Source: an uncultured Gammaproteobacteria bacterium (lineage in GTDB: Bacteria > Patescibacteriota > Patescibacteriia > Magasanikbacterales > UBA922). From it: 45,551 nt of DNA. Every line of letters begins with the position of its first letter. Position 1 is the first letter of the stretch. The notes under the pieces are model-generated. The model was not told the origin of the DNA. It saw only the letters and a program-made list of their open reading frames with translations, and did not search any database. Shown here piece after piece: positions 3,504 through 36,496 of this stretch. The position numbers and the translations under genes are program-made. Where the stretch lies: contig CAZRUM010000002.1 in the NCBI GenBank assembly GCA_964603435.1, positions 1-45,551 on the forward strand. The letters run 5' to 3'.

Positions 3504-3611
3504 ATTGTCCTCCTTTCCTCCTTGGTGTGTTTGAACAATCGGTGAATGAACGTGGAGATGTCTACTTGTCTGAATGGACGAGTAGGTGCGACGGATTTGT
3601 CGCGAGGTGGG

Positions 3612-3974
3612 TTAGCCCCCAGTGGTCACCATCTGCAGTCCGATGTAGGCCTTGAGGTGGGCGATGTTCCGGCCGTGCATGTTGAGCACCTCCTCGTGCA
3701 GATTGTGCGCGATGATGGCGCGAGCTACAGCGGCCAAGATCTCCCCCTCTCTCTGCATGTTGTAGTATTCGGCGACGTGGAGGAGTGCGTCCTTGAGACA
3801 CTGAAGTCCCTTTTTGGGCACGGTGCACTTCTTGGTCATGTACAAGACCACACAGAGTGCACTTCTCTTCTCTCTTTCAGTGGTCCTCATCTCCTCGAGA
3901 TGAGGCTGGTTGTCTTGACCAGCTTCGAGGAGAATTTCGGTCACTGTTTGATGGAATGGTTTGAATTCGGGCAT
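3612..3974 (-). CDS. hypothetical 120-aa protein encoded in a GC-rich island, divergent from uvrA
   Basis: Intact minus-strand ORF with protein-like composition inside a GC-rich segment of about 440 bp. The overlapping plus-strand ORF 3546..4025 has poor composition and is probably antisense noise. Confidence 0.5.
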   Translation of the reverse strand: MPEFKPFHQTVTEILLEAGQDNQPHLEEMRTTEREKRSALCVVLYMTKKCTVPKKGLQCLKDALLHVAEYYNMQREGEILAAVARAIIAHNLHEEVLNMHGRNIAHLKAYIGLQMVTTGG

Positions 3975-4033
3975 GGTCTACACCCCTTTCTTGTAGGGCA
4001 ATGGTTGTCAATATATCTAAATTAGCAAAAATA

Positions 4034-4089
4034 TTGACTTTTGTCAACCTTATCCACCGATTGACAACTCATACTAATGTAGTATAATT
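4034..4089 (+). promoter_or_regulatory. uvrA promoter (TTGACA, 17-nt spacer, TATAAT at 4061..4089) with an upstream palindromic TTGACttttGTCAA operator-like site
   Basis: Near-consensus -35/-10 pair. TTGAC/GTCAA half-sites recur at 4015, 4034..4047 and 4061. Confidence 0.5.
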
Positions 4090-4163
4090 AGCACATTGTT
4101 CTTTCTTTTATATACCTACCTATAAACCCCTTTGAGAGGGGCTTTTGGTGTGTCTACAAAATT

Positions 4164-6845
4164 ATGGAAAATAAAATAACAATTCGTGGAGCCAGAGAAC
4201 ACAACTTAAAAAATGTGGATCTTGAGTTGCCACGAAATAAAATGATAGCGTTTACAGGTTTGTCTGGGTCTGGAAAATCTAGTTTGGCTTTCGATACTAT
4301 TTTTGCTGAAGGACAGAGACGGTATATAGAGTCTTTGTCTGCTTATGCTCGTCAGTTTCTTGGTGGTATGAATAAACCAGATGTGGACGAAATAGATGGA
4401 TTGTCTCCAGCAATTTCTATTGACCAAAAAGCTCATAGTGCTAACCCGCGCTCGACAGTAGCGACTATCACGGAGATTTATGATTATCTGCGTGTGCTTT
4501 TTGCTAGGGTAGGAAAACCGTACTGTCCGGTTTGTAATACAAAGATAGACAAGATGACGACTGACGAAATGAACGAGCAAATTTTGAAAAGTTTTAAAAA
4601 AGATACCAAGAAAAAAAATAGTGAGATTATTATTCTTGCACCGGTTGTTCGTGGTAGAAAAGGGGAGTATTACCAGATGCTTTATGATATGTACAATACT
4701 GGTTTCCTAGAAGTAAGGGTTGATGGAAAAATGAAAAGTTTGAAAAATAAAATTGTACTCAAGAAAAATTTTAAGCATACAATTGAGATTGTGGTTGATA
4801 AAATAGCAACACTTTCTACAAAAGAAGGCAAAGATAGAATGGCCGAAGCAGTAGAAACTGCGGTAGATTTGTCAGATGGTTTGTGTACAGTAATTTTCCC
4901 AAATGAAAAAGAAGAGATTTTTAGTACAGAATATTCTTGTCCAAAGGATGGTTTTAGTTTTCCAGAAATAGAACCAAGGATGTTTAGTTTCAATAGCCCA
5001 TATGGATATTGTGATTATTGTACCGGTCTTGGTACCAAAAGTTTATTTTCAGAAGAAGTTTGTCCAAAGTGTGAAGGAAAGAGACTAAATAAAAATGCCT
5101 TGTCTGTAAAAGTGAATAAGAAAAATATTTGGGAGATTACAAATCTAACTATTGCTGAGGCTAGAGTCTTTTTCAATGAAATTCTTGATCACCTGAGTGA
5201 AAAAGATTTGGAAATTTCTAGTGCAGTGCTAAAAGAAATTTCCAATCGTCTTCAGTTTATGTTTGAAGTCGGTTTGCATTACCTTACGCTCAATAGAAGA
5301 GCAGGTACTATGTCGGGTGGTGAGGCACAGAGAATAAGACTGGCTTCACAAGTTGGTACACGTTTGGTGGGTGCTTTGTATGTTTTGGATGAACCAACAA
5401 TTGGTTTGCATCAAAAAGATAATGATAGATTGGTTTCTACTTTGCGTAGTCTGTGTGACGTAGGTAATACTATCATTGTAGTAGAACATGACGAGGATAC
5501 AATCTTGGCAAGTGATTGGGTGGTGGATATTGGTCCAGGTGCTGGAACTCACGGAGGAGAGATTGTTTATTCTGGTCCCTTAAGTACAATGTTGAACGAA
5601 ACGAATCCGCCAGCTGGCGGAGGAGTGAAGTCGAAACATCCCGATGTAAAACAACGGGATCCTTCGACTACAACTTCCTCTTCGTTTCACTCAGGGTCAG
5701 TTTTCGCTCAGGATGAAAACTTTGGCTGTAAATTAATTGGTAGTGGAAAAGATTCTCTTACAGGAAAATATTTGCGTGGAGAAAAGAAAATTGAAATCCC
5801 AGCCAAGCGTAGAAAAGTAGATAATCATACCCCAAAAATTAAAATAAAAAAAGCAGCCGAGCATAATCTAAAAAATATTAATGTAGATATTCCATTGCGT
5901 CGTTTGGTTTGTCTGACAGGTGTGTCTGGTTCTGGGAAATCAACCTTGATGCATAAGATTTTGTATCGTGCGGTTGCAAACAGAGTAAATTATCATGGGC
6001 GTGTACCAGCTGACAAAAGAAAACAAACTGGCAAACACAAAGAAGTATTAAATACAGAGTACATTGATAAAATTATTAAGATTGATCAAAAAGCAATTGG
6101 TAGATCACCAAGATCAAATCCTGCCACATATACTGGCACGTGGACATATATCCGCGATCTTTTTGCTTCTACTCCAGAGGCAAAGATTCGTGGTTACAAA
6201 ACTGGTAGGTTTAGTTTCAATCGTCCTGGCGGTAGGTGTGATCATTGTGAGGGTAGGGGAACATTAGAAATTCAGATGCATTTTCTTCCGAGTGTAGAGA
6301 TTGTTTGTGATGTTTGCAAAGGAAAAAGATTCAATCAAGAGACTCTACAAATTCATTACAAGAAAAAAACTATTGCTGATGTCCTCGACATGACAATAGA
6401 AGAAGCGGAAGAATTTTTTCGTGACATTCCATATATTTATGATAAACTAAAAATGTTGAATCAGGTTGGACTAGATTATCTTACGCTTGGTCAGTCTGCC
6501 AAGACTCTTTCTGGTGGTGAGGCACAGAGAACAAAACTAAGTAAGGAACTTGCCAAGAGAAATACAACCAAGACCTTGTATCTGTTAGACGAGCCAACCA
6601 CTGGTTTGCATTACGAAGATGTAAAAAAATTAATTAAAGTTTTGCAGGATTTGGTTTCTAAAGGAAATACTGTCATGGTAATTGAGCATAATCTTGATGT
6701 TATCAAGTGTGCTGACTGGATTATTGATCTAGGACCAGAGGGTGGAGATAAGGGTGGGGAAGTGGTAACAACCGGAACACCAGAGCAGGTTGCAATGTCA
6801 GGTTTTAGTTATACTGGTAAATATTTAAAGCGTGTACTTAAATAA
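4164..6845 (+). CDS. uvrA: excinuclease ABC subunit A (UvrA), carrying an in-frame repeat-element insertion of about 43 aa
   Basis: 893 aa; two ABC ATPase modules (GLSGSGKSS, GVSGSGKSTL; LSGGEAQR signatures twice); Cys-rich zinc modules. An anomalous GC-rich segment NETNPPAGGGVKSK…SGKDSLTGKYL interrupts the normally short linker before the SLTG motif. Confidence 0.95.
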   Translation: MENKITIRGAREHNLKNVDLELPRNKMIAFTGLSGSGKSSLAFDTIFAEGQRRYIESLSAYARQFLGGMNKPDVDEIDGLSPAISIDQKAHSANPRSTVATITEIYDYLRVLFARVGKPYCPVCNTKIDKMTTDEMNEQILKSFKKDTKKKNSEIIILAPVVRGRKGEYYQMLYDMYNTGFLEVRVDGKMKSLKNKIVLKKNFKHTIEIVVDKIATLSTKEGKDRMAEAVETAVDLSDGLCTVIFPNEKEEIFSTEYSCPKDGFSFPEIEPRMFSFNSPYGYCDYCTGLGTKSLFSEEVCPKCEGKRLNKNALSVKVNKKNIWEITNLTIAEARVFFNEILDHLSEKDLEISSAVLKEISNRLQFMFEVGLHYLTLNRRAGTMSGGEAQRIRLASQVGTRLVGALYVLDEPTIGLHQKDNDRLVSTLRSLCDVGNTIIVVEHDEDTILASDWVVDIGPGAGTHGGEIVYSGPLSTMLNETNPPAGGGVKSKHPDVKQRDPSTTTSSSFHSGSVFAQDENFGCKLIGSGKDSLTGKYLRGEKKIEIPAKRRKVDNHTPKIKIKKAAEHNLKNINVDIPLRRLVCLTGVSGSGKSTLMHKILYRAVANRVNYHGRVPADKRKQTGKHKEVLNTEYIDKIIKIDQKAIGRSPRSNPATYTGTWTYIRDLFASTPEAKIRGYKTGRFSFNRPGGRCDHCEGRGTLEIQMHFLPSVEIVCDVCKGKRFNQETLQIHYKKKTIADVLDMTIEEAEEFFRDIPYIYDKLKMLNQVGLDYLTLGQSAKTLSGGEAQRTKLSKELAKRNTTKTLYLLDEPTTGLHYEDVKKLIKVLQDLVSKGNTVMVIEHNLDVIKCADWIIDLGPEGGDKGGEVVTTGTPEQVAMSGFSYTGKYLKRVLK
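5655..5714 (+). repeat. Family-1 hairpin repeat (CGGGATCCTTCG…CTCAGGAT), long variant, in-frame inside uvrA. The wider inserted segment is about 5607..5735.
   Basis: Shares both termini with the copies at 34940, 36456, 41353 and with the minus-orientation copies at 18543 and 41236. Flanked by palindromes ccgccagctggcgg and acatcccgatgt. Confidence 0.7.
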
Positions 6846-8339: not shown

Positions 8340-8500
8340 GCGCCATGATGGTGATCGGGTGCGCTCCGTCTGCTACATTGTAGCATTGGTGCGACGCCGA
8401 GGGCACCGAAGGCCATCGGCACATCCGTACATCCGAAGATGTTTGGAATCAAGATCGCCGATCGTTAGAAACATCATGGCTGAATTAAACTTATCATATA
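8340..8500 (-). ncRNA. candidate small RNA unit 2 (GC-rich, about 160 nt, minus strand), from TTGACAAAATATT promoter at about 8510 to terminator at 8300..8335
   Basis: No credible ORF. GC-rich structured segment in an AT-rich genome, bounded by a TTGACA-type promoter motif and a bidirectional terminator. The 3' end matches the 3' end of unit 1. Confidence 0.3.
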
Positions 8501-8530
8501 TTGAATATTTTGTCAAGGTGTATATTCATA

Positions 8531-8566
8531 AAAAAATCCCGCCAATTAGACGGGTTTTGTTTGAGA
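8531..8566. terminator. second copy of the cccgcc…gcggg terminator module
   Basis: aaaaaaatcccgccaattagacgggttttgtttgag is near-identical to 8299..8336. Confidence 0.55.
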
Positions 8567-8569
8567 AAG

Positions 8570-8800
8570 AGGGGGTGGGCAAATTCCCCCGGGTGAGCAA
8601 GCTCGCCCTTCATACACATCTTGTTACCACTTTTCAGCAGAGAGTGACCAAGGTCGCGCCCATTCACTCTGCAAGAGTATGTATTTGCCCTGCCTGCTGG
8701 AAGCAAGAAAAGAGTACATCCACTTTTGGTATACTACGTTCAATGTCAAAAAGGCAGTTAGCTCACGCGATCGCTACTTACCCTCCCAGCCTTGCTTATT
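8570..8800 (-). ncRNA. candidate small RNA unit 1 (GC-rich, about 220 nt, minus strand), from a TTGACAAAATATTTTTTTATGCTATCAT promoter at about 8805..8832 to the terminator at 8531..8566
   Basis: No credible ORF. The same promoter/terminator architecture as unit 2, and the shared 3' sequence CTTCTCAAACAAAACCCG-CTAWTTGGCGGGATTTTTTT. Confidence 0.3.
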
Positions 8801-8849
8801 TAGATGATAGCATAAAAAAATATTTTGTCAAGGTCTGTATCTGCATAAT

Positions 8850-8885
8850 AAAAAATCTCCTTAGATAGGAGATTTTTTATTGGCT
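8850..8885 (+). terminator. intrinsic terminator-like hairpin
   Basis: tctccttagataggaga followed by T6. Confidence 0.4.
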
Positions 8886-9550
8886 ATATTTACAAGTTTT
8901 ATAAATATAGTTTTGGTGGGAGTCTGGGTAGACTCCCGAAAAAAGATCGAAAGAGAAGGAGCAAAAAAGGGGAGGGACCCCGGCGGGTGAGAGAGGTCAC
9001 TCGCCGGAGCTTCCCCAGAGGTGATCTAGGATGTGGTAACCCTCCGCGGTTGGAACAGTGTGGACCGTGGGGGTGTATTCCTAAAACACCTCAGGCGTCG
9101 ACGAATCATGAACCCTCCGACGTCTGAATATGATTTTACAGTCTTTTTTTATTTTAGTCAAGACTTTTTGTTTGGATATAAAAAACCAGCCGTAGAGGCT
9201 GGTTTAGTTGGGGAGGGACACCAGACAGTAGAACGTGTTCTAACTGTCGGGGGATAAATCAAGGAGGATATTTTGTTCCTCAGATTTTGATTTCTTATCC
9301 CACTGTCTGGTGTTAGAGAAAGCGGTGTTGACTGAAGGAATGTGTGGGGGTATTTGCAATGGTTTTATGGTAGGGTTGATAGCTTTGCCTCCCTTAGAGG
9401 TCTTTTCCGCTTCCCCCTATTTGGTTGAACCGTTGAGATAAGATTGGGTAGAATATCCCAACGACTACTCCGGTATGTACCATAACAGTCTATTTTTTTA
9501 TAGTCAAATTTTTATTTTTTAAATTACTGTGGATAAGTGGGGATTGGGGG

Positions 9551-9579
9551 TTGCGGAGGTATTAAAAGTGGGGTATAAT
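9551..9579 (+). promoter_or_regulatory. Pmra promoter (TTGCGG, 17-nt spacer, TATAAT) overlapped and followed by GTGGGG MraZ-box-like direct repeats (9537, 9568, 9588, 9598)
   Basis: Good -35/-10 geometry about 85 nt upstream of mraZ. Repeats of (G)TGGGG at roughly 10-bp multiples. Confidence 0.55.
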
Positions 9580-9666
9580 GGTTGTACGTGGGGATTTATG
9601 GGGAAAATGCCTGTCTCCCTATAAATTAAAAAAACTAGTGTTAACTCGTGTTAAAATTAGCGATTT

Positions 9667-11974: not shown

Positions 11975-14725
11975 ATGGGAGAACAAAAACCACAACTAAA
12001 TATCTTACAATGCCATACCTGTGGAGGTGCAGGTTATGTTAATTATCGCAAATGTTCAGAATGTAATGGTATGAGTATTGGTCAGATGAAAAAAGGTAAG
12101 TTTTTATATTGGGGTGAACCTCTTACTCGCTATCATATTAGTATTAGAAAAGCGAGACGAGTTTTAAATAAAATTAGAATTATTGGTGCCTTAGTTTTTG
12201 GCTTAGGTTTTCTTTGTTTTTTCTTTTGGAATCTTTATAAAAAAGATGCTTGGGTAGAAGTTTTCACAGCAGATTTTTGGTTGGGTGATAATTTTTATGT
12301 TAGTTTATTGTGGTTGAGTTTGATAGCATTTGCTTATCTTTTTTATCGTTTGTTAATTTCAGGTAGAGTTCAAGAAACTGTTGAAATGAGAGGTTATGGT
12401 CAAAAAGAAGTAGTGCCAGAGTTTGCCCAACCTCAAGTGATACAGACTTGGTTAGAAGTAACAAAACTACGTCGTAAAAATAAAAAAGACATTGCTGACG
12501 TTTTTACAAGTGAAGCTAGGCAGGTTCTGGAGCAAGCTTATCTGCAAGCAGAAAAAAATCAAAATGAAGAGGTTACAGTGTGGCATATACTTTATGCTTT
12601 GCTCGCTTCATCAAAAATAGCGACTGTATTTTTGCGTATGCAAATTCCAATCAAGAAACTTCAAGCTCATATTGCCAAAGAATTCAAAACTAGCGACAAA
12701 GATACATTACCAAGACTATCTGACGATTTGCAACAAATTTTATTTCAATCTTACAGTTTGGCTTATGAAAAACGTCAGGAATATGTAAATGTGACAGAGC
12801 TTTTAGTGGCAACTGTGCGTCAATCAGAAAAGATTCAGGAGTTGTTGTATGATTTGAAAATTGATAGAAACAAACTTGATAATGTCGTAGAATGGTTGCG
12901 TATTCGTGAACATCTTAGAGTTCAATATCAAAAATTCAAAAAAGTAGCAGCTCGTCGGAGTAAATATGGTATGGACAGAGCGATGACAGCTGTAGCTACA
13001 CCATATCTAAATAGTGTCAGTCAAGATCTTACGATGGCTGCCAAGTTTGGTCAGCTCTATCCTTGTGTAGCCAGAGAGGAAGAGATGGCTGAGGTTTTTC
13101 GTATTATAGAAGGTGGACAGCAGAGTGTGGTTTTGGTGGGTGAACATGGAGTAGGAAAGATGAGTATTATAGAGGGTATTGCTCAGCGTATGGTAGAAGA
13201 TGATGTACCAGACAGATTGAAAGATAAACGTTTAGTTCAGCTGTCTACCTCAGCTTTGCTCGCTGGTACGACTGTTAGCGGTGCCCAAGAGAGGATTATT
13301 CGCATTATGACTGAAGTGGGTAAAGCTAAAAATATAATTTTGTTTATAAATAATATTCATGATCTATCTGGTGTGACCGAGACTGGAGGAGAAGGAGTAG
13401 ATATCTCCGAGACTTTGGCAGAATATTTGGGACCAGGAAAATTTTTGACTTTTGCGACTTCTATTACTAGTAATTTCAATCAACAGGTGGTAAACACAGA
13501 GCTTGGTGGAGTGCTGTCAAAAGTAGAAATAAAAGAAATGAATGAAAATCAAGCTATTCAAGTCCTTGAATCAAAAGCTGGTAGCATAGAATACAAACAT
13601 GATGTTTTGTTTTCTTACGGAGCTCTCGAAGCTTGTGTAAAATTATCAGGAAAATTTTTGCATGATAATAATTTGCCAGATTCGGCTATAAATATAATGA
13701 CCGAGACGGCTAGTTTTGCACATAACAAAGGTGGTAATAGTTTTGTGACTTCAAATGATGTGGGAGAAATAATTTCTAAAAAAACTGGTATTCCTGCTAC
13801 AAACATAGCAGAGGATGAGGGTGATAAATTGGTTCGTCTGGAAGATACTATGCACGAGCGTATGGTTGGTCAAAATGATGCTGTAAAGCTCGTGGCTGAT
13901 GCTCTTCGTCGGGCTAGAGTAGAGATAAGATCACAAAAACGTCCAATTGCCAATTTTCTTTTCTTGGGGCCGACTGGTGTAGGAAAAACTGAACTTGCCA
14001 AAACAATTGCGGATGTATACTTTGGTGGCGAGAAAAATATGATTAGAATTGACATGAGTGAATATCAAGACAAGAGTGGTATTTATCGTCTGATTGGTCA
14101 ACCAGGCCAGCAAGGCAGTGGTATTCTTACTGAAGCAGTTCGTCAAAAACCATTTTCTTTAGTTCTGTTAGATGAGTTAGAAAAAGCTGATCCAGATGTT
14201 TTGACTTTATTTTTACAGGTGTTCGATGATGGTAGGCTGACAGATAGTACTGGTAGAGTAATTGATTTTACCAATACAATTATAATTGCCACTTCTAATG
14301 CTGGGACTAACTTTGTGCAAGATCAATTGGTGCAAGGTGTTTCTCTAGAAAGTATTCGTCAACAACTTATAAAAGCAGAACTGAAAAATTATTATCGTCC
14401 AGAATTTATTAATCGTTTTGATGGTGTGGTATTATTTAGCCCACTAAATCGTGAAGAGATAAAACAAATTGCTGGATTAATGTTGAAACGTGTCGGAAAA
14501 AATTTAGAAAAGCGTGGTGTCACTTTGCAAGTAGAGGATTTAGCCCTAGATGCATTGGCACAAGTTGGTTTTGATCCAGAGTTTGGGGCCAGGCCAATGA
14601 GAAGGGCAATTCAAGATATGGTAGAAAATAAATTGGCCGATTTAATTTTACAAAACAAACTGCAACGTCGTGATGTTTTGATTTTGGGTAAGGGGTGCGA
14701 GATAAGGATTGAGAAAGCGAAATAA
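11975..14725 (+). CDS. membrane-anchored Clp/Hsp100-family AAA+ ATPase (ClpC/ClpB-like) with N-terminal zinc ribbon, TM helices, two Clp_N repeats, a degenerate D1 and a canonical D2
   Basis: 916 aa. N-terminus CHTCGG…CSECNG, then hydrophobic helices. D1 Walker A reads GEHGVGKMS and D1 Walker B reads FINNIH (DE replaced by NN). D2 has GPTGVGKTELAK, LLDELEKA and ATSNAG intact. Confidence 0.8.
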   Translation: MGEQKPQLNILQCHTCGGAGYVNYRKCSECNGMSIGQMKKGKFLYWGEPLTRYHISIRKARRVLNKIRIIGALVFGLGFLCFFFWNLYKKDAWVEVFTADFWLGDNFYVSLLWLSLIAFAYLFYRLLISGRVQETVEMRGYGQKEVVPEFAQPQVIQTWLEVTKLRRKNKKDIADVFTSEARQVLEQAYLQAEKNQNEEVTVWHILYALLASSKIATVFLRMQIPIKKLQAHIAKEFKTSDKDTLPRLSDDLQQILFQSYSLAYEKRQEYVNVTELLVATVRQSEKIQELLYDLKIDRNKLDNVVEWLRIREHLRVQYQKFKKVAARRSKYGMDRAMTAVATPYLNSVSQDLTMAAKFGQLYPCVAREEEMAEVFRIIEGGQQSVVLVGEHGVGKMSIIEGIAQRMVEDDVPDRLKDKRLVQLSTSALLAGTTVSGAQERIIRIMTEVGKAKNIILFINNIHDLSGVTETGGEGVDISETLAEYLGPGKFLTFATSITSNFNQQVVNTELGGVLSKVEIKEMNENQAIQVLESKAGSIEYKHDVLFSYGALEACVKLSGKFLHDNNLPDSAINIMTETASFAHNKGGNSFVTSNDVGEIISKKTGIPATNIAEDEGDKLVRLEDTMHERMVGQNDAVKLVADALRRARVEIRSQKRPIANFLFLGPTGVGKTELAKTIADVYFGGEKNMIRIDMSEYQDKSGIYRLIGQPGQQGSGILTEAVRQKPFSLVLLDELEKADPDVLTLFLQVFDDGRLTDSTGRVIDFTNTIIIATSNAGTNFVQDQLVQGVSLESIRQQLIKAELKNYYRPEFINRFDGVVLFSPLNREEIKQIAGLMLKRVGKNLEKRGVTLQVEDLALDALAQVGFDPEFGARPMRRAIQDMVENKLADLILQNKLQRRDVLILGKGCEIRIEKAK

Positions 14726-14737
14726 AATAGTTTTATT

Positions 14738-14772
14738 ACCCAGCCCCTCTCCTTGGATAAGGAGAGGCTGGG
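14738..14772. repeat. GC-rich hairpin (cccagcccctctccttGGATaaggagaggctggg), left terminal inverted repeat of the DUF559 cassette, probably also the ClpC-like gene terminator
   Basis: Perfect stem of about 14 bp. A reverse-complement copy with the loop flipped lies at 15166..15200. Confidence 0.6.
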
Positions 14773-14806
14773 TGAGGTTGAGTATCTGTGATTAAAAAGG
14801 TTAGTT

Positions 14807-15211
14807 ATGTCACAAAAATTAATCAATTTAAAAAAATTAAAAACAACAAGACGTAGTCTTCGAAAAAGACAAACAAAACCAGAGGTGTTGATTTGGTCAC
14901 GATTGAAAAATAGACAAACAGGTTATAAATTTAGAAGACAACATAGCATAGGTCCATTTATAGTGGATTTTTATTGTCCCCAATTTAGATTGGTAGTGGA
15001 AATAGATGGTTCAATACATTCTAAAAAAGTTTTAAAAGATAACGAGAGGGAAAAATATTTATTAGATAAAAATTTTTATGTAGTTCGTTTTAGTGCATAT
15101 AAAGTATTGGATGATTTTGAAAGTGTTGTAGAGGAAATTAAAATTGTCTGCGAAAGGTTGTCAACCTCCCCTAACCCCTCCTTATCCAAGGAGGGGGACC
15201 GAATTAGATAA
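14807..15211 (+). CDS. DUF559 endonuclease-domain protein (Vsr/restriction-endonuclease-like fold)
   Basis: 134 aa; matches the DUF559 pattern (…GYKFRRQHSIGPFIVDFYCPQFRLVVEIDGSIH…REKYL…GYVVRF…). The C-terminal tail STSPNPSLSKEGDRIR is encoded by the right-hand hairpin. Confidence 0.7.
   Translation: MSQKLINLKKLKTTRRSLRKRQTKPEVLIWSRLKNRQTGYKFRRQHSIGPFIVDFYCPQFRLVVEIDGSIHSKKVLKDNEREKYLLDKNFYVVRFSAYKVLDDFESVVEEIKIVCERLSTSPNPSLSKEGDRIR
15166..15200. repeat. right terminal inverted repeat hairpin of the DUF559 cassette (cccctccttATCCaaggagggg)
   Basis: About 80% identical to the reverse complement of 14735..14775 over about 38 nt. Confidence 0.55.
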
Positions 15212-15235
15212 GTGATTTCTTGTAATAAAAAAGTA

Positions 15236-15272
15236 GAGACGTGGCATGTCACGTCTCTACTTTTTTATTTTA
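15236..15272. terminator. strong bidirectional intrinsic terminator
   Basis: A6, perfect 12-bp stem agtagagacgtg/cacgtctctact, then T6. Confidence 0.75.
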
Positions 15273-15289
15273 TGTCAAGGGTCAGGGTA

Positions 15290-15318
15290 TTGATAAGGAA
15301 CTTTCAAATTTGTATACT
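15290..15318 (+). promoter_or_regulatory. sigma70-like promoter for the small-peptide pair
   Basis: TTGATA, 17-nt spacer, TATACT. Confidence 0.45.
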
Positions 15319-15362
15319 AGCCCTAGTTCTTTGAAGCGTTCTTTAAAACAGAGGAGGAAGAC

Positions 15363-15506
15363 ATGAAAAAAGTGTGGATTATGAGAGCAATCGTCTTGAT
15401 CATTCTGCACTATGTAGTGGACAATGTCTATGCCGAGATTGTTTTGCTCATGATACTGGCAGTCAATATCTGTCTGATATTCTGGGTCAAACGAAATCTG
15501 GAGTAG
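15363..15506 (+). CDS. small tail-anchored membrane peptide, 47 aa (MKKVWIMRAIVLIILHYVVDNVYAEIVLLMILAVNICLIFWVKRNLE)
   Basis: Strong SD AGGAGG 5 nt upstream of the ATG; C-terminal TM helix; paralogous to the next ORF (shared D-VYAEI[VI]L motif). Below the 60-aa cutoff of the ORF track. Confidence 0.5.
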   Translation: MKKVWIMRAIVLIILHYVVDNVYAEIVLLMILAVNICLIFWVKRNLE

Positions 15507-15558
15507 TGATAATCATCGCTACTTCGCAGACAGTACTCTCACCACGAGGAGAAGAACA

Positions 15559-15699
15559 ATGGTAAAGGACCACACAGTAAAAGTAACCATATTTTTCTTG
15601 GATGAAGATGGGTACGATGTCTATGCCGAGATAATTCTCATTACTATTCCAGCTTTCATTATCCGTCGAAAATTCCGGAGGAAATGGACTGTTGGGTAG
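15559..15699 (+). CDS. small tail-anchored membrane peptide, 46 aa (MVKDHTVKVTIFFLDEDGYDVYAEIILITIPAFIIRRKFRRKWTVG)
   Basis: SD GAGGAG 7 nt upstream of the ATG; C-terminal TM helix followed by a basic tail; paralog of the preceding peptide. Confidence 0.5.
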   Translation: MVKDHTVKVTIFFLDEDGYDVYAEIILITIPAFIIRRKFRRKWTVG

Positions 15700-15776
15700 A
15701 GAGATTTGCAAGAGTTGCAAGTCTAGAAAAATCATCTTGGGGCAGAACATGAAAGTCCACTGTCCCAAAACGTTGC

Positions 15777-15800
15777 AGGCGACCGAAAGGGTCGTTTTTT
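15777..15800 (+). terminator. intrinsic terminator of the small-peptide unit
   Basis: gcgaccgaaagggtcg followed by T7. Confidence 0.55.
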
Positions 15801-15857
15801 TGTTTGTCAAAATTGCGATAAATATGTTATAATAATTTTGCTTAACATAGCTAAAAC

Positions 15858-16883
15858 ATGTATTTTGTATATTTTTTATTAGCATTTTTCCTGTCTTTTT
15901 TCCTAACTATCATAGTGCGTCAGCTAATGCGTTATTTTAAGATTGTGGATATTCCAAAAGTTGAGAAAAGAAAAATTCACAAGAAAAAAATACCTTTGGG
16001 TGGTGGCTTAGCAATTTTTGCTAGTTTTTTTATTTTAGCTTTTGCTTTTCACGGGGAGCTAGGGGATCATGTTACTCTTACACATATTTGGGCATTGTTT
16101 TTTGGTGGGCTAGTTTTGATGATAGGTGGAATTCTAGATGATAAATATAATCTAAAAGCAAAACAACAGATTTGGTTTCCAGTGCTCGCTGCTGTGATTG
16201 TTTTACTTTTTAAAATTGGACCAGAGATAATTACTAATCCTTTCGGTGGTGTAGTAGAGCTAAGTGTATATGCTTGGGGAAATTATCTGACTATTGCTAA
16301 TCTGTTAGTTTTTGTTTGGCTTATGGCGATGATGTTTACTACTAAGCTTTTAGACGGATTAGATGGGTTAGTTACAGGTGTGGTAGCTATTGGTGCGATG
16401 ATGATTTTCTTCTTGAGTCTAGAGCCACAATGGTTTCAGCCAGACGTGGCCATGTTATCAATTTTATTTGCCGGTTCTTGTGTGGGGTTTTTAGTCTGGA
16501 ATTGGCATCCGGCAAAAATATTTCTTGGTGAAGGTGGAAGTTTGTTTACTGGTTTTATGCTCGGAAGTCTGGCTGTTATTTCTGGTAGTAAGATTGCTAC
16601 AGCCTTGCTTGTCATGGGTGTGCCTATGCTTGATATTGTTCGTGTTATATTTTTACGTATCAGAAAAGGTAAACCAATTTTTGTTGGTGATTCAGAACAT
16701 TTACATTTTCGTTTATTAAAAAGTGGAATGACACAAAAGCAAGCTGTGCTATTATTCTATAGTTTGTCATTTTTATTTGGCATTACCACCTTATTTTTAC
16801 AAAGCAGTCAAAAATTGATGGCACTTAGTTTTTTATTTGTTCTCATGATGCTTTTGGGTGTGTGGTTTGGTCGAAAGAAATAA
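15858..16883 (+). CDS. polyprenyl-phosphate sugar-1-phosphate transferase (GT4 MraY/WecA family, probably WecA/TagO-like)
   Basis: 341 aa, about 10 TM segments; KKKIPLGGG, DDKYNL and FLGEGGSLFTGF motifs. The C-terminal VGDSEHLHFRLLKSGMTQKQAVL resembles WecA DRQHIHHLIMRAGFTSRQAFVL. It sits at the mraY position of the dcw cluster. Confidence 0.7.
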   Translation: MYFVYFLLAFFLSFFLTIIVRQLMRYFKIVDIPKVEKRKIHKKKIPLGGGLAIFASFFILAFAFHGELGDHVTLTHIWALFFGGLVLMIGGILDDKYNLKAKQQIWFPVLAAVIVLLFKIGPEIITNPFGGVVELSVYAWGNYLTIANLLVFVWLMAMMFTTKLLDGLDGLVTGVVAIGAMMIFFLSLEPQWFQPDVAMLSILFAGSCVGFLVWNWHPAKIFLGEGGSLFTGFMLGSLAVISGSKIATALLVMGVPMLDIVRVIFLRIRKGKPIFVGDSEHLHFRLLKSGMTQKQAVLLFYSLSFLFGITTLFLQSSQKLMALSFLFVLMMLLGVWFGRKK

Positions 16884-24370: not shown

Positions 24371-26548
24371 TTAATTCAGCAAATATTCATAAACCCAAAC
24401 TCTACCTTCGTAAAGTTCCCACCAGTTGTCAGCTTCTAGTTTGGCGGCATCACGAATCTCAGCTGCAGGAGCCCAGTAGTTTGTATGAACAAAATAAGCT
24501 TTCTTGACTCCGGCAAATTGCATGGCCTCTACCATCCATTTCTTTAAAGGTTCTTCGTAAACCATCTTGCGGAAGTATTGATAAAATGGACCACCAGTTG
24601 GAATAGAATAAAAATACTGTGGACCTTGTAAGGTTTCGTGATATTTTGCAAAGCTAAATTCGTGTAGAGCGGCTGTAGCAATAGTTTGATTTGTTAGAAC
24701 AATATAGTCTTTCTTACCTTCGTTGCGTTTATCAATTGTTCGGACTGTACCAATATCAGCTGCGCGAATATTAAAGCCTGTGTAGTAGGAGATAGTGTCG
24801 CGAGTAGGATAAGTAAAAAACCAAGAGATAAGAAGTAGGGCAGAAAATACTATGGCAATTAGGAATTGTCTGCCTGATTGTTTTTTTATTAAAATAAAAA
24901 GTTGGCGTAAGGCTAAGACAAAAAAAGGAATCATTAATATCAAACCCAAGTCTAGTAGGCGAGTGCCGTAGAGTCTTTGGTCGTAGGAAATGACGTTGGC
25001 AAATTTTACTGAAGTGATAAGAATAAAACTAGATAAAATTAAACCGAGAACTGTTGTTAGCCAAAAGCCGAGGTTTTTTAGTTTTAGTTTTTTGTAAGCA
25101 ATAAAAATTCCCAAAATTATTACGACAACGCAGAGTGGTTTTATAAAGTCGCGATAATAATATAAAATTTGCAAAGGTAGTTCGCCTTTTTCTATAAAAA
25201 TATAATGAGGGCGTTTGAAAATTACTAAGAAGTTATTTATATTTGCAACGAAGCTGTGAAAGGTGATAGAACCAGCTTGTCTTAGAGAATTGAGATAGAG
25301 TGTGGCTGGGACTGTTAGTGTTAAAATAATAAAATAGAGTGGGTAAAAAATAGCACGGAATTTTTTCTTGGCAAATAAAATAGAACCTAAATAAATCACA
25401 GTCATGGGTAGTCCAATGAAAGGGTGAATAGCACAGGTGGTGAAAACTAAAATCCAACCAAACATGTTAGTTCTAAAATCGCCAAATTTATCCCGCACCA
25501 CAAGGGTGCAGGACTCGTCCTGTATTGTAGGGGTACCGGATTCGTACCAAATCCACATACCTATTACAAAAGCCATAAGTAAGGCAAAGTTGTTTGGTGT
25601 GGTAACAATAAAAAAACTAAGTGGGATGAGGGGGATAAGAGCGAGAGCGGGGATTAGCTTGTATTTAAAATCTAACCTAGATAAAGAAAAATAACTGACG
25701 GCTGGTAGTAATATTCCAGCGCCTATTGGTACAATGATTTTATCTAGATTATAAATTGAAATTTTTGTAAGTAGACTGCCGGCAACGACTAGAACATATT
25801 GTCCTATATAGTAGGGAACTTTTGGTAGAATAGAACCGTTTTCTAGAATCCATTTTTCTGTGGCTTGGTGGATATGCATGTCAAAACCAAAACCGTATTT
25901 GAAAATAATAAGCGCTACACTCAGCATCAGAATATTGTGCGTAGTTAGAATTAACAAATTGGAAGGTGAATGTTTTGATTTTTGTAAAACCCAGAGTAGT
26001 AGTAGGGTGATTATAGCAAAGAAGATAAAAAATCTTGACCCCATAATAGTCCAAGGGGAGATGAGGGTGTCAGAAAAACGCCGTCCAATGAGAACAGAAA
26101 ACATCATTAGTTGTCCGACTAAAATTATCAAGACAAATATTTTGGTTGATAAATAAGATTTTATGTAGGCATAGGACTCTAGATCAATTTCTGTTTCTAC
26201 ATTTTCAAAAATATCTTTTTCTTGCGTTTTGTGGAAAGCAAAAATTATCGGTGGAATTATAAGTACGGCAGTGACGATGTTTATATTTATTTCATAAAAC
26301 CAATAGACACCTGAAAGAATAATTATTCCTAGACCTGCTAGAGCCAAACTACCAAACAAAATTTGCCAGATACGTTTTTCTGTGGGCAAAATTTGACCAC
26401 CAGCATAGTAGCCAAAGAAAAATAAATAAAACAGAGTAAAAAATGTACTCCAAATAGGGTTGGTCATTTCACGCAAACCAAAAATTGCCAGTATTGTAAT
26501 TAAACTGCCAAAAATGATATACTTGCCATTGTTAACTAGTCTTTGCAT
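24371..26548 (-). CDS. very large polytopic membrane protein (at least 14 predicted TM helices), possibly a GT-C-type glycosyltransferase or polymerase. Function not recognised.
   Basis: 725 aa, almost entirely hydrophobic helices with a soluble C-terminal domain of about 90 aa; located in the glycan locus. Confidence 0.5.
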   Translation of the reverse strand: MQRLVNNGKYIIFGSLITILAIFGLREMTNPIWSTFFTLFYLFFFGYYAGGQILPTEKRIWQILFGSLALAGLGIIILSGVYWFYEININIVTAVLIIPPIIFAFHKTQEKDIFENVETEIDLESYAYIKSYLSTKIFVLIILVGQLMMFSVLIGRRFSDTLISPWTIMGSRFFIFFAIITLLLLWVLQKSKHSPSNLLILTTHNILMLSVALIIFKYGFGFDMHIHQATEKWILENGSILPKVPYYIGQYVLVVAGSLLTKISIYNLDKIIVPIGAGILLPAVSYFSLSRLDFKYKLIPALALIPLIPLSFFIVTTPNNFALLMAFVIGMWIWYESGTPTIQDESCTLVVRDKFGDFRTNMFGWILVFTTCAIHPFIGLPMTVIYLGSILFAKKKFRAIFYPLYFIILTLTVPATLYLNSLRQAGSITFHSFVANINNFLVIFKRPHYIFIEKGELPLQILYYYRDFIKPLCVVVIILGIFIAYKKLKLKNLGFWLTTVLGLILSSFILITSVKFANVISYDQRLYGTRLLDLGLILMIPFFVLALRQLFILIKKQSGRQFLIAIVFSALLLISWFFTYPTRDTISYYTGFNIRAADIGTVRTIDKRNEGKKDYIVLTNQTIATAALHEFSFAKYHETLQGPQYFYSIPTGGPFYQYFRKMVYEEPLKKWMVEAMQFAGVKKAYFVHTNYWAPAAEIRDAAKLEADNWWELYEGRVWVYEYLLN

Positions 26549-26594: not shown

Positions 26595-27221
26595 ATGGGC
26601 AGAATCAAATATTTCGTGGAAAAACATCCAAAATTGTTTGAATATTTAAAAAGTGAAGAAATACATCCGCACGATCATTTCATGGCGCGGACTTTTTTGA
26701 AATTGGTTCCAGAGTCTGTTTCACCAAATCAAGTGACAGCTTTTCGTATAGTTATGACACCAATTGTTTTTCTTTTGGTTTTGTCAGTACAATATAAACT
26801 AGGGGTTATAATGTTTATATTGGTAGCTTTTACAGATGTGATAGACGGTTCCTTGGCAAGAACAAGAAGTAAGATTACACGCTTTGGTATGATGTTTGAT
26901 CCTTTGGCTGATAAACTTTTGATTGGGTCAATGGTGATTTTGTTGGTTTTTAAGTATTTTAATTTTTATTTAGGTTTGGCAATTTTGGGACTTGAGATTA
27001 CTTTTATTGTTGTCAGTGCTCTGTCAGTCAAATATAAATTTAAAACAGTAAAGATGGCAAACCTTTGGGGGAAGATAAAGATGTTTTTGCAGGTTCTGGC
27101 GGTTTCGGTTACCTTATTGGCTTTAGTATTAGATATTCCTTATTTACTTACAATTGCTTCTGGTATTTTTGGTCTGGCAGTTGGGTTTGCAATAATAAGT
27201 TTGTTTACTTACGGAATATAA
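26595..27221 (+). CDS. CDP-alcohol phosphatidyltransferase family protein, native AT-rich copy
   Basis: 208 aa; DVIDGSLARTRSKITRFGMMFDPLADK matches D-G-x2-A-R-x8-G-x3-D-x3-D. Confidence 0.75.
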   Translation: MGRIKYFVEKHPKLFEYLKSEEIHPHDHFMARTFLKLVPESVSPNQVTAFRIVMTPIVFLLVLSVQYKLGVIMFILVAFTDVIDGSLARTRSKITRFGMMFDPLADKLLIGSMVILLVFKYFNFYLGLAILGLEITFIVVSALSVKYKFKTVKMANLWGKIKMFLQVLAVSVTLLALVLDIPYLLTIASGIFGLAVGFAIISLFTYGI

Positions 27222-27332
27222 TTAAACATACTAAATACAAAAAGTACAAAAATACAGACAAAAAGAAGTAGATACAAAATAAATAGTTATTGTCTTTAAA
27301 AAAGAAGGAACCTCGCCGGAGTGGGCGAGGTG

Positions 27333-28124
27333 TTAGGCGGGGTTGTGTTGCTTCAGCTTGCTGAGCAAGCTTTTGTGAGCAAAGGGAATCGCGAGAATCA
27401 GGCAGGTAAGACCTACCCAGAAACTCCACGATGAAAGAGCGGGAAGGGCAAGGATGAGACCGCCGAGTCCTATCATCTCCAGTGCCATTTTCAACTTTCC
27501 AGAACCTTTCGCACGGAGATCAAGACTGTTACCATTACCTTCGTAATGATTGTAGTAGTAGTCATGGACTCGAACAATGCCTAGCACTACTTCGTAGCAG
27601 AGAAGACAGAGTGTTGCGAATCCGCTGGTGAGCAGTAGGGTCGAGGATGTTTCGGTGTACTGTGCCATAAGAGCAACAATAACCAAAACGAGAAAGAAGT
27701 AGAACTTGTCACAAAAGGCATCTAAAAAAGCTCCTAGATCTTTATCATCCTTGTAGCCGAGTTCTTCGTGTGCAGTAGCTACTAGTCCATCGACAAAGTC
27801 GAGAATGCCCCCAACGACATAGATCCAGAAGCCTGGTAAAATCAGATCTTCATAGAGAAGTACTCCGATTGGAAAGACTAACAAGGTTCGAAAAATGGTT
27901 ACGACGTTGGCCGTGATGAAGAATACTCTTTCTCGCCCTTTTAGATCCTTTTCCTTCAACCTCTTCGGAAGAAGATTGAGTACTCGGGTGGGTATGAGCC
28001 AGACAGGGAAATGTCTAGGGAAGAGAACTTTGGCTACTGGCATCAGCTTCTTGCGAAGCTCAGTGTAGAATTGAGAAAACCAACCAAGAACTATTCCAAG
28101 AGCTATTGAGATCATTGAGTTCAT
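27333..28124 (-). CDS. CDP-alcohol phosphatidyltransferase family protein, GC-rich copy. Start is probably the ATG at 28124, 8 nt after AAGAGG; the ORF extends to GTG 28133.
   Basis: DFVDGLVATAHEELGYKDDKDLGAFLDAFCDK motif, multiple TM segments, GC-rich codon usage. The N-terminus carries a tandem 9-nt duplication (MNSMNSM). Confidence 0.65.
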   Translation of the reverse strand: MNSMISIALGIVLGWFSQFYTELRKKLMPVAKVLFPRHFPVWLIPTRVLNLLPKRLKEKDLKGRERVFFITANVVTIFRTLLVFPIGVLLYEDLILPGFWIYVVGGILDFVDGLVATAHEELGYKDDKDLGAFLDAFCDKFYFFLVLVIVALMAQYTETSSTLLLTSGFATLCLLCYEVVLGIVRVHDYYYNHYEGNGNSLDLRAKGSGKLKMALEMIGLGGLILALPALSSWSFWVGLTCLILAIPFAHKSLLSKLKQHNPA

Positions 28125-28166
28125 TGAGTTCACCTCTTATATCTGAGCCTCGTAGAGGCGATTTGT

Positions 28167-31910: not shown

Positions 31911-31937
31911 AAAATATTTTTTAGATAAAATAACTCT

Positions 31938-31968
31938 TGCCATAGGGTTGTTTTTTGTTGTATAATGG
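31938..31968 (+). promoter_or_regulatory. promoter (TTGCCA, 18-nt spacer, TATAAT) upstream of the GC-rich small-protein pair
   Basis: Sequence ttgccatagggttgttttttgttgtataat. Confidence 0.4.
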
Positions 31969-31997
31969 AAATGAAAACAATCGGAAAGGAGGGGGAT

Positions 31998-32225
31998 ATG
32001 AAAAGAGATGAAATTACATCTCTTGGTAATGTTCGTTTTAGCCATCTCCTTCCGGAGTTGATTGCTAGAGCACAGGCAGGCTCCGAAGAGAAGGGTTTTT
32101 CAGACCAAGAACACGCGTGGTGGGAGATGAGAGCCCAGACGTTGAGTTCTTGGGATGGGGAGACCTTCCGTAGGAGAAGGCAACCATTTCTTCGGATTGT
32201 GAATACAAGCGACACTGGAAGGTGA
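31998..32225 (+). CDS. hypothetical 75-aa protein, GC-rich
   Basis: SD AAGGAGGGGG 4 nt upstream of the ATG; GC-rich codon usage. Confidence 0.45.
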   Translation: MKRDEITSLGNVRFSHLLPELIARAQAGSEEKGFSDQEHAWWEMRAQTLSSWDGETFRRRRQPFLRIVNTSDTGR

Positions 32226-32235
32226 GGAGGACAGT

Positions 32236-32445
32236 ATGACCACTTTGTTGAGTGACCATGCAAACGTAATGGTCAAAGGGTGCGAAGATCGCCTGCGTCA
32301 AGCTAGTCCTGGCTCGACCGAAGCTGCTCATCGTCAGGAGTTGCTTTCTGTCGCCCGAGGCTTTCGAGGAGGAATCCATCTCGATTTCGATGTTTCTGAA
32401 ATGGAACGTCAGAACCGAAGGTCGCGACGTGGTCTCATTTCGTAA
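32236..32445 (+). CDS. hypothetical 69-aa protein, GC-rich
   Basis: SD GGTGAGGAGG 5 nt upstream of the ATG; starts 10 nt after the previous ORF. Confidence 0.45.
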   Translation: MTTLLSDHANVMVKGCEDRLRQASPGSTEAAHRQELLSVARGFRGGIHLDFDVSEMERQNRRSRRGLIS

Positions 32446-32587
32446 GCCGTTTTTTCACAAGGAGTTCCCCCGAACCCACAAGTTCGGAGGAGGTACAAAG
32501 TAGTTCTTTAATAGGACTATTTTTTTGTTTTACAAATTAGAGAAATTTTGCTAATATATAGATATAATTTCTTATAAAAAAATAAAT

Positions 32588-35380: not shown

Positions 35381-35539
35381 AGTATCCGCCAAAGGCGGAC
35401 CAGCCTTTGGCTGGGAAAGTCAAAAGTATTTATTGACCGCCATGGTGGTGGTTTTTTGTTTTGGTATTGACAAAGTATATTTTTTATGGTAAAAGAAGTA
35501 TAGAAAACAACGCCACGGGAGTGGCAGGAGGTTCTTACA

Positions 35540-36241
35540 ATGGCAAAGATTTCTTTGCGTGGGGTTGTCGGGTACGAGGGTGGTACTTTGGAGTGGTTGC
35601 AAAAGGTCTCGCTCGGGGGAGAACCTCGTCTCGACCTGGCAATCGCCGTGGTAACCCAGTACCGTCGGGCTCGGGCGTTCCAGCGGTCGGAGGATGAGAG
35701 CGACCAGGAGTATGGGGTGATGCTGATGAATCAGTTCATCATCCACATGGTTTCTCTCGGTCACCACTACTTGGTCCAGGGCGACATTCCTGCGGCCTGG
35801 CTCGCTGAGCACAACAAGGCTTCTGCTCTGCACGTTCTCGGTGAGCACAACAAGGCTGACGTCATCAACCGTCAGATCCTCGTTGAGATCGATGGTTACC
35901 GTGAGGAGCACGAGGTACTCGACGAGGACGGCGAGTTCGTCGAACTCAAAGTCTTTTTCGGCTTGGTGGAGAACAACGAGGAGTACCGGCAACAAGTCGG
36001 TCACGAGACCTGGGGTCAGAAGGTAGAGCACATGAAGGAAATGCATCTACCCGACTACCCGGGCCGGGTCGAGGTTTACGTCAAGTATCTGCTTGAGGAA
36101 GATCTCATGAGCAAGGGTGAAGCTTCGTTCAAGATTGGCGAAGTACTCATTTACTGCTGTGATATTCACCTCTTCGGTAAGTACGATCAGCTCGAGCGTC
36201 TGCGCCTGTTCGCCCTCTCTCTTCAGGGGCACACCGACTAG
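35540..36241 (+). CDS. hypothetical acidic 233-aa protein, GC-rich
   Basis: SD AGGAGG 8 nt upstream of the ATG; long GC-rich ORF. The overlapping minus-strand ORF 35420..36046 looks like antisense noise. Confidence 0.55.
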   Translation: MAKISLRGVVGYEGGTLEWLQKVSLGGEPRLDLAIAVVTQYRRARAFQRSEDESDQEYGVMLMNQFIIHMVSLGHHYLVQGDIPAAWLAEHNKASALHVLGEHNKADVINRQILVEIDGYREEHEVLDEDGEFVELKVFFGLVENNEEYRQQVGHETWGQKVEHMKEMHLPDYPGRVEVYVKYLLEEDLMSKGEASFKIGEVLIYCCDIHLFGKYDQLERLRLFALSLQGHTD

Positions 36242-36354
36242 GGGCACACTTCACTTCTTCTTTTCATCCTTCCCTAAGGTCATTGAATTGACCAGTTCTT
36301 TCTATTCCCACCCCACCCCGCCGCATGACATCCTTCCTGCGGCAACTTCAAAAG

Positions 36355-36378
36355 AATCCGATATGATCGGGTTTTTTT
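36355..36378 (+). terminator. intrinsic terminator after the GC-rich ORF
   Basis: ccgatatgatcgg followed by T7. Confidence 0.5.
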
Positions 36379-36455
36379 GTTTAATGGCGTAGACTTGAAA
36401 AAAAACTCTAAAAAGGCTATAATTGTGAATATATTATTTAGATTGAGCTTTAAAC

Positions 36456-36492: not shown

Positions 36493-36496
36493 ACTT

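Follow-up and report, generated by a model that had tools for sequence, protein, structure and literature searches.

Two tandem small ORFs led by Shine-Dalgarno sequences in a putative lineage-specific insertion of a Candidatus Magasanikbacteria genome

Two-peptide and leaderless bacteriocin operons, such as those of the enterocin L50A/B type, carry genes for two paralogous peptides of about 45 aa, arranged in tandem and co-transcribed. Phage holin/antiholin pairs usually correspond to dual starts of one gene or to clearly membrane-spanning partners. To our knowledge, the accessory and defence biology of the ultra-small, probably symbiotic Magasanikbacteria is almost unknown. Type I toxins have been searched for as tandem ORFs of 16–70 aa with at least 10 hydrophobic residues out of 15 and a charged or aromatic C-terminus (Fozo et al. 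2010, PMC2887945). We analyzed a stretch of 45,551 nt, called the window, in which an original prediction had placed a stand-alone transcription unit (15290–15800) for two paralogous, tail-anchored membrane peptides resembling type I toxins or holins. Both peptides pass the heuristics of PMC2887945, with 14/15 hydrophobic residues for ORF1 and 11/15 for ORF2. The resemblance goes no further than these generic heuristics, as neither an antisense RNA, nor lysis genes, nor a family match was detected. The functional interpretation given at the time is without support, and calling the unit a membrane toxin or a holin pair is a guess. The unit itself is somewhat better defined than before, as a module duplicated in tandem within an insertion.

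The features of the locus are collected in Table 1. The coordinates and sequences originally reported for the unit are correct: two tandem small ORFs of 47 and 46 aa with strong Shine-Dalgarno (SD) sequences are present, followed by an intrinsic terminator made of a stem and a T-run. The promoter, which had been called good, is present as a TTGATA/17/TATACT motif, but such matches are not rarer here than in shuffled sequences, with nine promoter-like sites in 2.1 kb versus 6.1 ± 2.7 in shuffles, so that a match alone is not above chance. The DNA around this site is AT-rich. The unit is insulated by terminators on either side, a bidirectional-looking one upstream, which also closes the DUF559 gene, and its own downstream, with no further gene between the two. 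The GT4 gene that follows has a separate promoter-like site, and the description as a stand-alone unit holds. In a window so dense in genes, 630 bp without a recognized one are unusual. Inspection of the ORF list by eye brought up a single further gap of similar length (31911–32587); it is a second GC-rich gap, with strong SD motifs and very strong folding (z −6.55).

Table 1. Coordinates of the features found at and around the small-ORF unit, numbered as in the window
Feature	Coordinates	Strand	Remarks
Variable segment, from the ClpC-like stop (14725) to the GT4 start (15858)	14726–15857		Contains the DUF559 cassette and the small-ORF unit
DUF559 (Vsr-like endonuclease fold) gene, 14807–15211, with bracketing repeats	14721–15221	+	Context only, outside the unit
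Perfect 23+23-nt palindrome with A-run and T-run, bidirectional terminator-like	15224–15269		ΔG −27.4 kcal/mol
Candidate sigma-70-like promoter, TTGATA, 17 nt, TATACT	15290–15318	+	10/12 matches; supported by position alone
AGGAGG, SD-like, 5 nt upstream of the ORF1 ATG	15352–15357	+	Duplex ΔG −12.0 kcal/mol
ORF1, 47 aa, GRAVY 1.35, C-terminus ...IFWVKRNLE	15363–15506	+	Hydrophobicity, AF2, orphan searches
Alternative 63-aa ORF, GTG start, without SD, other frame, overlaps ORF1	15374–15565	+	Gene-caller pick on contig L003
Core copy 1, ATGTCTATGCCGAGAT, encodes (N)VYAEI	15424–15439	+	16-nt exact repeat
12-bp hairpin from the ORF1 stop codon, intercistronic	15499–15526	+	z −4.8; ΔG −14.2 kcal/mol
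GAGGAG, SD-like, 7 nt upstream of the ORF2 ATG	15546–15551	+	Duplex ΔG −8.9 kcal/mol
ORF2, 46 aa, acidic N-terminal half, basic tail RRKFRRKW	15559–15699	+	Hydrophobicity, AF2, orphan searches
Core copy 2, ATGTCTATGCCGAGAT	15617–15632	+	16-nt exact repeat
10-bp hairpin immediately 3′ of the ORF2 stop	15702–15724	+	z −4.0
Third hairpin, 3′ UTR	15737–15768	+	z −2.65
Intrinsic terminator: GC-rich 8-bp stem (15777–15797), 5-nt loop, T-run	15777–15804	+	Sequence and fold
GT4 promoter-like site, near-consensus, extended −10	15804–15833	+	11/12 matches
GT4 (MraY/WecA-type) glycosyltransferase gene	15858–16883	+	3′ neighbor of the unit

The unit lies within a 1.13-kb insertion at the junction between the ClpC-like and GT4 genes, and its neighborhood comprises the ClpC-like, DUF559, GT4, DUF192, and L21 genes. 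The nearest relatives of the GT4 protein are found in Candidatus Magasanikbacteria (Patescibacteria/CPR), the best one sharing 74% amino-acid identity, and the gene order ClpC-like, GT4, DUF192, L21 is kept in 26 relatives. The gap between ClpC and GT4 does not exceed 150 nt in 14 of these 26, including the two closest, L005 (2 nt) and L006 (11 nt), and it is longer than 400 nt in nine others, which carry unrelated cargo. This cargo consists of other DUF559 genes (L015 and L017), of a restriction-modification set with a LexA-fused C5 methyltransferase, a partner ORF, and an XRE-like regulator (L029), or of assorted non-homologous small membrane ORFs in other relatives. Because the closest relatives have a short gap and others hold unrelated cargo, the segment 14726–15857 is, judging from these comparisons, a lineage-specific insertion at a hypervariable junction. 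The small membrane ORFs at the junctions of relatives do not form one family, only those of L008 and L010 being weakly alike.

The DUF559 gene (Pfam DUF559, E 2e-29) is flanked by a 61-nt imperfect inverted repeat (14721–14781 and 15161–15221, 74% complementary) with a GC-rich hairpin core, which is found at those two sites only in the window. The small-ORF unit lies outside this repeat. The DUF559 cassette next to it is mobile-looking.

Searches for relatives of the two peptides covered protein, genome, and mobile-element collections. Against 5.8 billion protein clusters, ORF1 and ORF2 each matched itself only, and an exhaustive HMMER search of 1.84 billion representatives with a two-peptide profile returned the two queries only. 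Pfam, PHROGs, PADLOC, NCBIfam, and the PDB gave nothing meaningful for either peptide, the best PHROG match (E 0.52) being to a function-unknown family. The search for short-ORF homologues advised in the original prediction thus yielded no relative in any protein search. The prediction had also been tied to conservation in related genomes: searches by blastn, tblastn, nhmmer, and tblastx did not find the unit in any of 160 related loci of Patescibacteria, 26 of which are of the Magasanikbacteria type and have identical flanking genes in kind. When GTDB genomes and JGI metagenomes were scanned with GT4 as the anchor, no relative appeared in the interval from 100% down to 74% identity. The remaining contigs with this locus, retrieved from several samples by exact-peptide and L21-anchored look-ups, are all 100% identical across the region and thus offer no population-level substitution comparison. 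Scanning viral contigs with the peptide profile gave nothing, and the phage and plasmid DNA searches were empty. The 16-mer core (Table 1) had 30 single matches in the mobile-element search, none extending beyond 23 nt, which is consistent with chance. The DUF559 gene was also tried as an anchor for a co-travelling copy of the unit and was discarded, its best non-self homologue being only 50% identical. Given this absence of relatives, the unit is, as far as these searches reach, lineage-specific; the absence does not prove its ORFs untranslated.

When 15340–15535 is aligned to 15536–15735, two colinear modules of about 195 nt appear, each composed of an SD, an ATG, about 60 nt, the 16-nt core, 65 nt, a TAG stop, and a hairpin. 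The distance from ATG to core is 61 nt in ORF1 versus 58 nt in ORF2, and this in-frame 3-nt difference is the one indel; the distance from core to stop is the same in both. The core, ATGTCTATGCCGAGAT, explains the VYAEI motif already noticed in both peptides, which is encoded by an exact DNA repeat starting at 15424 and 15617. Even with three mismatches allowed, it has two copies only in the 45.5-kb window, its complement is absent at the same tolerance, and a 16-nt exact match is far beyond chance. The two modules are, from their alignment, colinear tandem DNA duplicates, in line with the paralogy that had been claimed for ORF1 and ORF2.

Conservation between the modules is uneven. On the 3′ side of the core, identity reaches 56% (z 3.95, 2/500 shuffles), whereas on its 5′ side it is 47% (z 0.07), a random level except for GAGGAG and the ATG. 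The differences are spread evenly among the three codon positions, with counts of 10/9/10 on the 5′ side of the core and 9/8/11 on its 3′ side. Between the copies, seven codons are identical, six synonymous, and 32 non-synonymous, and the changes include radical hydrophobic-to-basic replacements. The synonymous excess by which the original prediction was to be judged could be sought in one comparison, paralogue against paralogue, and was not seen there; by these counts, there is no protein-level selection signal between the copies. The identity of the core appears to be set at the DNA level, because all its third codon positions are identical. The retention of GAGGAG, ATG, core, and stop looks selective, since the left flank outside the SD and ATG is at random-level identity. 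A neutrally diverged copy would be expected to stay open 21–24% of the time, which is not rare. This uneven conservation, especially that of the core, is the single finding for which neither neutral decay nor ordinary protein-level selection accounts well.

The two predicted peptides differ in character. ORF1 is hydrophobic over residues 4–42, nearly its entire length, with a summed insertion ΔG of −0.46 for residues 22–42 and +0.89 for residues 4–19, and it ends with W-V-K-R-N-L-E. Its AlphaFold2 (AF2) model, computed with no alignment, is one helix (residues 2–46, pLDDT 95). ORF2 has a GRAVY of 0.22, and its sole hydrophobic stretch comprises 15 residues, among them a Glu and a Pro (ΔG +1.55); its AF2 model combines a β-hairpin with a basic C-terminal helix (pLDDT 76), so that the predicted folds of the two peptides differ. 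According to these models, membrane-like character is convincing for ORF1 only and marginal for ORF2. Of the single C-terminal transmembrane helix proposed for both peptides, what stands is a strongly hydrophobic, membrane-like helix in ORF1, which spans nearly the whole peptide; the transmembrane prediction for ORF2 is marginal, and a tail-anchored topology does not suit its short stretch and its model. Two other ORFs were considered and rejected, the 63-aa ORF overlapping ORF1, which we judge spurious, and a 132-aa ORF on the minus strand, both without SD, family match, or favorable codon score. On a longer contig (L003), a gene caller took the 63-aa ORF in place of ORF1.

Anti-SD duplex energies were computed against the canonical anti-SD. 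The 37 host ORFs have a mean of −1.94 kcal/mol versus −2.01 kcal/mol for random ATGs; the values for ORF1 and ORF2 are those of Table 1. Host genes are essentially without SD, and SD-led initiation appears unused by the host. The anti-SD motif has been reported missing from about half of Parcubacteria 16S rRNAs (PMC9297842). Because host ORFs match random ATGs in duplex energy, the strong SDs mark the unit as foreign and are poor evidence for good translation in this host. The codon-usage scores per codon (−0.17 for ORF1, −0.04 for ORF2) lie within the range of stop-free spurious ORFs (−0.15 ± 0.17), real genes scoring 0.18 ± 0.12, and GC3 is 0.57 in ORF1 and 0.43 in ORF2 versus 0.26 in host genes. 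The same window holds a GC-rich islet (22.8–24.2 kb) with real Pfam-matched genes, including a ThiI/QueC-like PP-loop enzyme, and an SD-like sequence lies upstream of the ThiI-like gene at 23450. Foreign origin need not mean dead, because that islet carries real genes, one of them with an SD-like sequence upstream.

At the RNA level, the plus strand of the unit folds better than shuffles (z −3.19), as compared with a z of −0.83 for the minus strand. Within the ORF bodies, folding is unremarkable (z −0.75 and −1.3). The 5′ UTR with the first SD (15320–15375, −6.8 kcal/mol) is less stable than shuffles (z +0.62), the region at the ORF1 start is A-rich and unstructured, and the SD of ORF1 is not sequestered in the predicted fold. 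The plus-strand excess is explained by the discrete hairpins after the stops and in the 3′ UTR (z values in Table 1), an mRNA-like arrangement and not that of a large structured RNA. Rfam gave no match at E ≤ 1 over 15270–15810, nothing at gathering score over the whole window, and nothing when nine hot-spot loci from relatives were scanned. The idea that a known RNA is hidden here (RNase P, tmRNA, SRP, 6S, riboswitch) was discarded after Rfam (E ≤ 1) and ARAGORN returned nothing, and so was that of a consensus structure common to both modules, for which the RNAalifold folding term is only −2.95 kcal/mol (weak). The antisense RNA that the original prediction suggested looking for was not detected computationally: the minus strand has no promoter with acceptable −35 and −10 boxes and no strand-specific folding minimum, and the window lacks a core complement; an unconventional RNA could escape these criteria.

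The reading that we tentatively prefer, without giving it an even chance, is that of a foreign, lineage-specific bicistronic small-peptide operon, with a membrane-active ORF1 and a diverged, basic-tailed partner. The unit would have been acquired horizontally into the hypervariable spacer of a Candidatus Magasanikbacteria genome, and the tandem duplication of one SD-ORF-hairpin module would have given its present form. The GC3 values, the strong SDs in an SD-less genome, and the unrelated accessory cargo of the junction all point to foreign origin. The RNA would start from the TTGATA/TATACT site, its 3′ hairpins would stabilize it as an mRNA, and both ORFs would be translated. The product of ORF1 would be a strongly hydrophobic helix inserted in the membrane, with a Trp-Lys-Arg anchor after the hydrophobic stretch, and that of ORF2 a small peptide whose basic amphipathic tail may lie on the membrane surface or interact with nucleic acid. 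Judging by analogy from the small hydrophobic peptides of accessory islets, the most likely role would be that of a membrane-active peptide with a diverged partner, possibly a module of the toxin or exclusion kind or else a small modulator of the membrane, carried as accessory cargo and not as a core function. A more doubtful, still serious reading is that of an incidental relic, 630 bp of left-over foreign or rearranged DNA whose ORFs are open by chance or recent history and yield no functional product. This would suit strict orphans in all protein searches, a unit missing from all relatives at a hypervariable junction with unrelated cargo, and codon usage like that of spurious ORFs. It would equally suit copies that show no codon-position asymmetry, have a non-negligible chance of staying open neutrally, and have undergone radical replacements toward differing predicted folds, as well as SDs that are probably irrelevant in this host. 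It fits poorly with the survival of a 16-nt perfect block, of GAGGAG with the ATG, and of the stop register in an otherwise saturated alignment, with expression signals that are intact as a full set, and with a gene-less stretch of a length that has a single counterpart in the window.

The core identity at all third positions is also what one would expect if the purine-rich motifs, the core, and the hairpins acted at the nucleotide level, for instance by binding proteins or RNA, in an RNA or DNA element of a non-coding or cis-acting kind to which the ORFs do not matter. The difference in folding between the strands, the missing protein-level selection signal, host genes without SDs, and the combination of strong SD motifs and folding in the gap at 31911–32587 go in the same direction. 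We nevertheless consider such an element improbable, as no Rfam family is matched even at E ≤ 1, the excess structure consists of simple post-stop hairpins around unstructured ORF bodies, and the modules share no consensus structure and have no homologues for covariation. Slightly lower still do we place a type I toxin-antitoxin-like module, in which one or two membrane-depolarizing toxin peptides would be restrained by an RNA that could pair with the nucleotide-level core. It would be in keeping with small hydrophobic ORFs that are placed in tandem within an intergenic islet, well away from the flanking genes, and pass the toxin heuristics, with Trp and charged residues after the hydrophobic stretch of ORF1 and a charged/aromatic tail in ORF2. 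It is opposed by a minus strand without two-box promoter or specific structure minimum, by the missing core complement, by an open ORF1 SD behind a 5′ UTR less structured than shuffles, by the location of both ORFs on one transcript instead of separate toxin/sRNA pairs, and by the lack of any matching Pfam or NCBIfam model. That small-ORF translation and the terminator at 15777 form a leader or attenuator of GT4 is very improbable: the terminator does precede the start of GT4 by 60 nt and shares its strand, but GT4 has its own promoter-like site 3′ of it, the GT4 gene of the closest relatives abuts ClpC directly with no leader, and inspection of the predicted 3′-UTR fold disclosed no alternative anti-terminator pairing. 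More speculatively, and again with low probability, 15290–15800 and 31911–32587, as small GC-richer cassettes that stand alone, might represent an undescribed class of mobile, SD-led mini-ORF-pair modules in Patescibacteria, toxin- or exclusion-like, whose translation would be governed unlike that of host genes and whose core would be an RNA-level control site.

This locus is a singleton, located in a CPR genome assembled from a metagenome; it has no comparative support, and its practical value is limited to that of a clearly delimited candidate for testing by expression. Should the peptides be real, the unit would count among the earliest candidates for a membrane-active small-peptide module to be described in Magasanikbacteria, and SD-led cassettes facing SD-less host genes would, if real, provide a handle on translation-start choice in CPR bacteria.

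Among described systems, the unit shares with the type I toxins Ldr/Fst, Ibs, and ZorO the presence of tandemly duplicated ORFs of less than 70 aa within a single intergenic islet, Trp and charged residues that come after a hydrophobic stretch, and an intergenic region that would be short without its strain-specific islet. It differs from them in the lack of any detectable sRNA, whether antisense or divergent, in an SD that is left open, in the location of both ORFs on one transcript, 52 nt apart, in the marginal hydrophobic stretch of ORF2, and in a sequence unlike that of any toxin family; Hok, Ldr/Fst, TisB, Ibs, ShoB, TxpA, and others gave no Pfam, NCBIfam, or PADLOC match at permissive E-values. 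Phage holin/antiholin pairs are likewise small peptides encoded next to each other that combine a hydrophobic segment with a basic tail at the C-terminus, but here no endolysin, spanin, or phage gene lies nearby, no PHROG is matched, and ORF2 is not convincingly membrane-spanning. A holin/antiholin pair was rejected on the neighbors, which include no lysis or phage genes, and on the lack of phage DNA similarity. With two-peptide bacteriocins, the unit has in common paralogous tandem peptides of about 45 aa on one transcript, but it has no double-glycine leader, no immunity or ABC-exporter neighbors, and no sequence match, and ORF1 is far too hydrophobic for a secreted soluble cationic peptide; a bacteriocin operon thus fails on leader, neighboring genes, and hydrophobicity. 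The unit also resembles the orphan small ORFs found in accessory islets of metagenome-assembled genomes, being lineage-specific, host-unlike in composition, located beside a mobile-looking DUF559 cassette, and called inconsistently by gene finders. Unlike these, it combines unusually complete expression signals with an internal duplicate, which makes a limited selection test possible.

The junction between the ClpC-like gene and the GT4 glycosyltransferase gene, which in this window carries both a DUF559 gene and the small-ORF unit (15290-15800), is an insertion hot spot throughout Magasanikbacteria: unrelated cargo of 0.45-3.1 kb is found there in 9 of the 26 relatives, among them the relative locus L029 (see table). 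The relative loci L008 and L010 have a minus-strand ORF in common at this junction, with weak similarity; in L010, its hydrophobic N-terminus leads into a charged region that is probably helical.

The DUF559 gene of the window lies within an inverted repeat whose core is a GC-rich hairpin, CCCCTCTCCTTGGATAAGGAGAGG, and its ORF runs through the right repeat arm, giving the C-terminal tail 'SPNPSLSKEGD'. Similar GC-rich motifs likewise accompany the DUF559 genes present at the ClpC/GT4 junction in two relatives (L015 and L017). Gene and repeat together resemble a small cassette of mobile or MITE-like type.

Features at the ClpC/GT4 junction and elsewhere in the window (window coordinates unless a locus is named)
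Feature	Location	Description
L029 junction cargo	L029 2881-6001	550-aa LexA-like/C5-methyltransferase fusion; 262-aa partner ORF; XRE-like regulator
61-nt imperfect inverted repeat	14721-15221	flanks the DUF559 (Vsr-like endonuclease) gene on both sides
TATAAT-like box	within gap 31911-32587	
Small ORF, 86/75 aa	starts 31965/31998	very strong SD motif; gap 31911-32587
Small ORF, 69 aa	start 32236	very strong SD motif; gap 31911-32587
Terminator-like hairpin	within gap 31911-32587	
Further GC-rich islands	3601-4200, 8401-9600, 22801-24600, 27001-28200, 35401-36600	GC 0.43-0.53 vs about 0.35

Independent assemblies of different samples share break positions at 15380 and 19492: contigs L004 and L203 both begin at 15380, within the first ORF of the small-ORF unit, and L203 and L204 end together at 19492. 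These coincident breaks may point to the coexistence of strain variants with different sequences on the left side of 15380, but no variant sequence was recovered. Comparison of the window with contig L003 revealed a single cluster of differences, nine substitutions in 123 nt (12106-12228) within the N-terminal portion of the ClpC-like gene; over the other 8.6 kb the two are identical.

A second gap without annotation, at 31911-32587, has the same architecture as the small-ORF unit. Its GC content is 0.45 as compared with about 0.35, the Shine-Dalgarno (SD) motifs of its two small ORFs reach -12.1 and -12.0 kcal/mol, and its folding far exceeds that of shuffled sequences on both strands (z -6.55 on the plus and -4.36 on the minus strand). 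The gap, identical in sequence across other samples from the same population, matched neither Rfam (best E 0.5) nor Pfam entries and could be a structured RNA or a further foreign small-ORF cassette. The GC-rich islands elsewhere are possibly horizontally acquired segments; the one at 22.8-24.2 kb contains a ThiI/QueC-like PP-loop gene preceded by an SD-like sequence, and Pfam gave no match for the ORFs in 3546-4025, 8359-8868, and 35540-36241.

The host genes are essentially devoid of SD sequences. Across all 37 long ORFs in the window, the anti-SD duplex energy averages -1.94 kcal/mol, the same as that 5' of random ATGs, and a value of -8 kcal/mol is reached by just one gene, at 23450. This fits the absence of the anti-SD motif reported for many Parcubacteria (PMC9297842).
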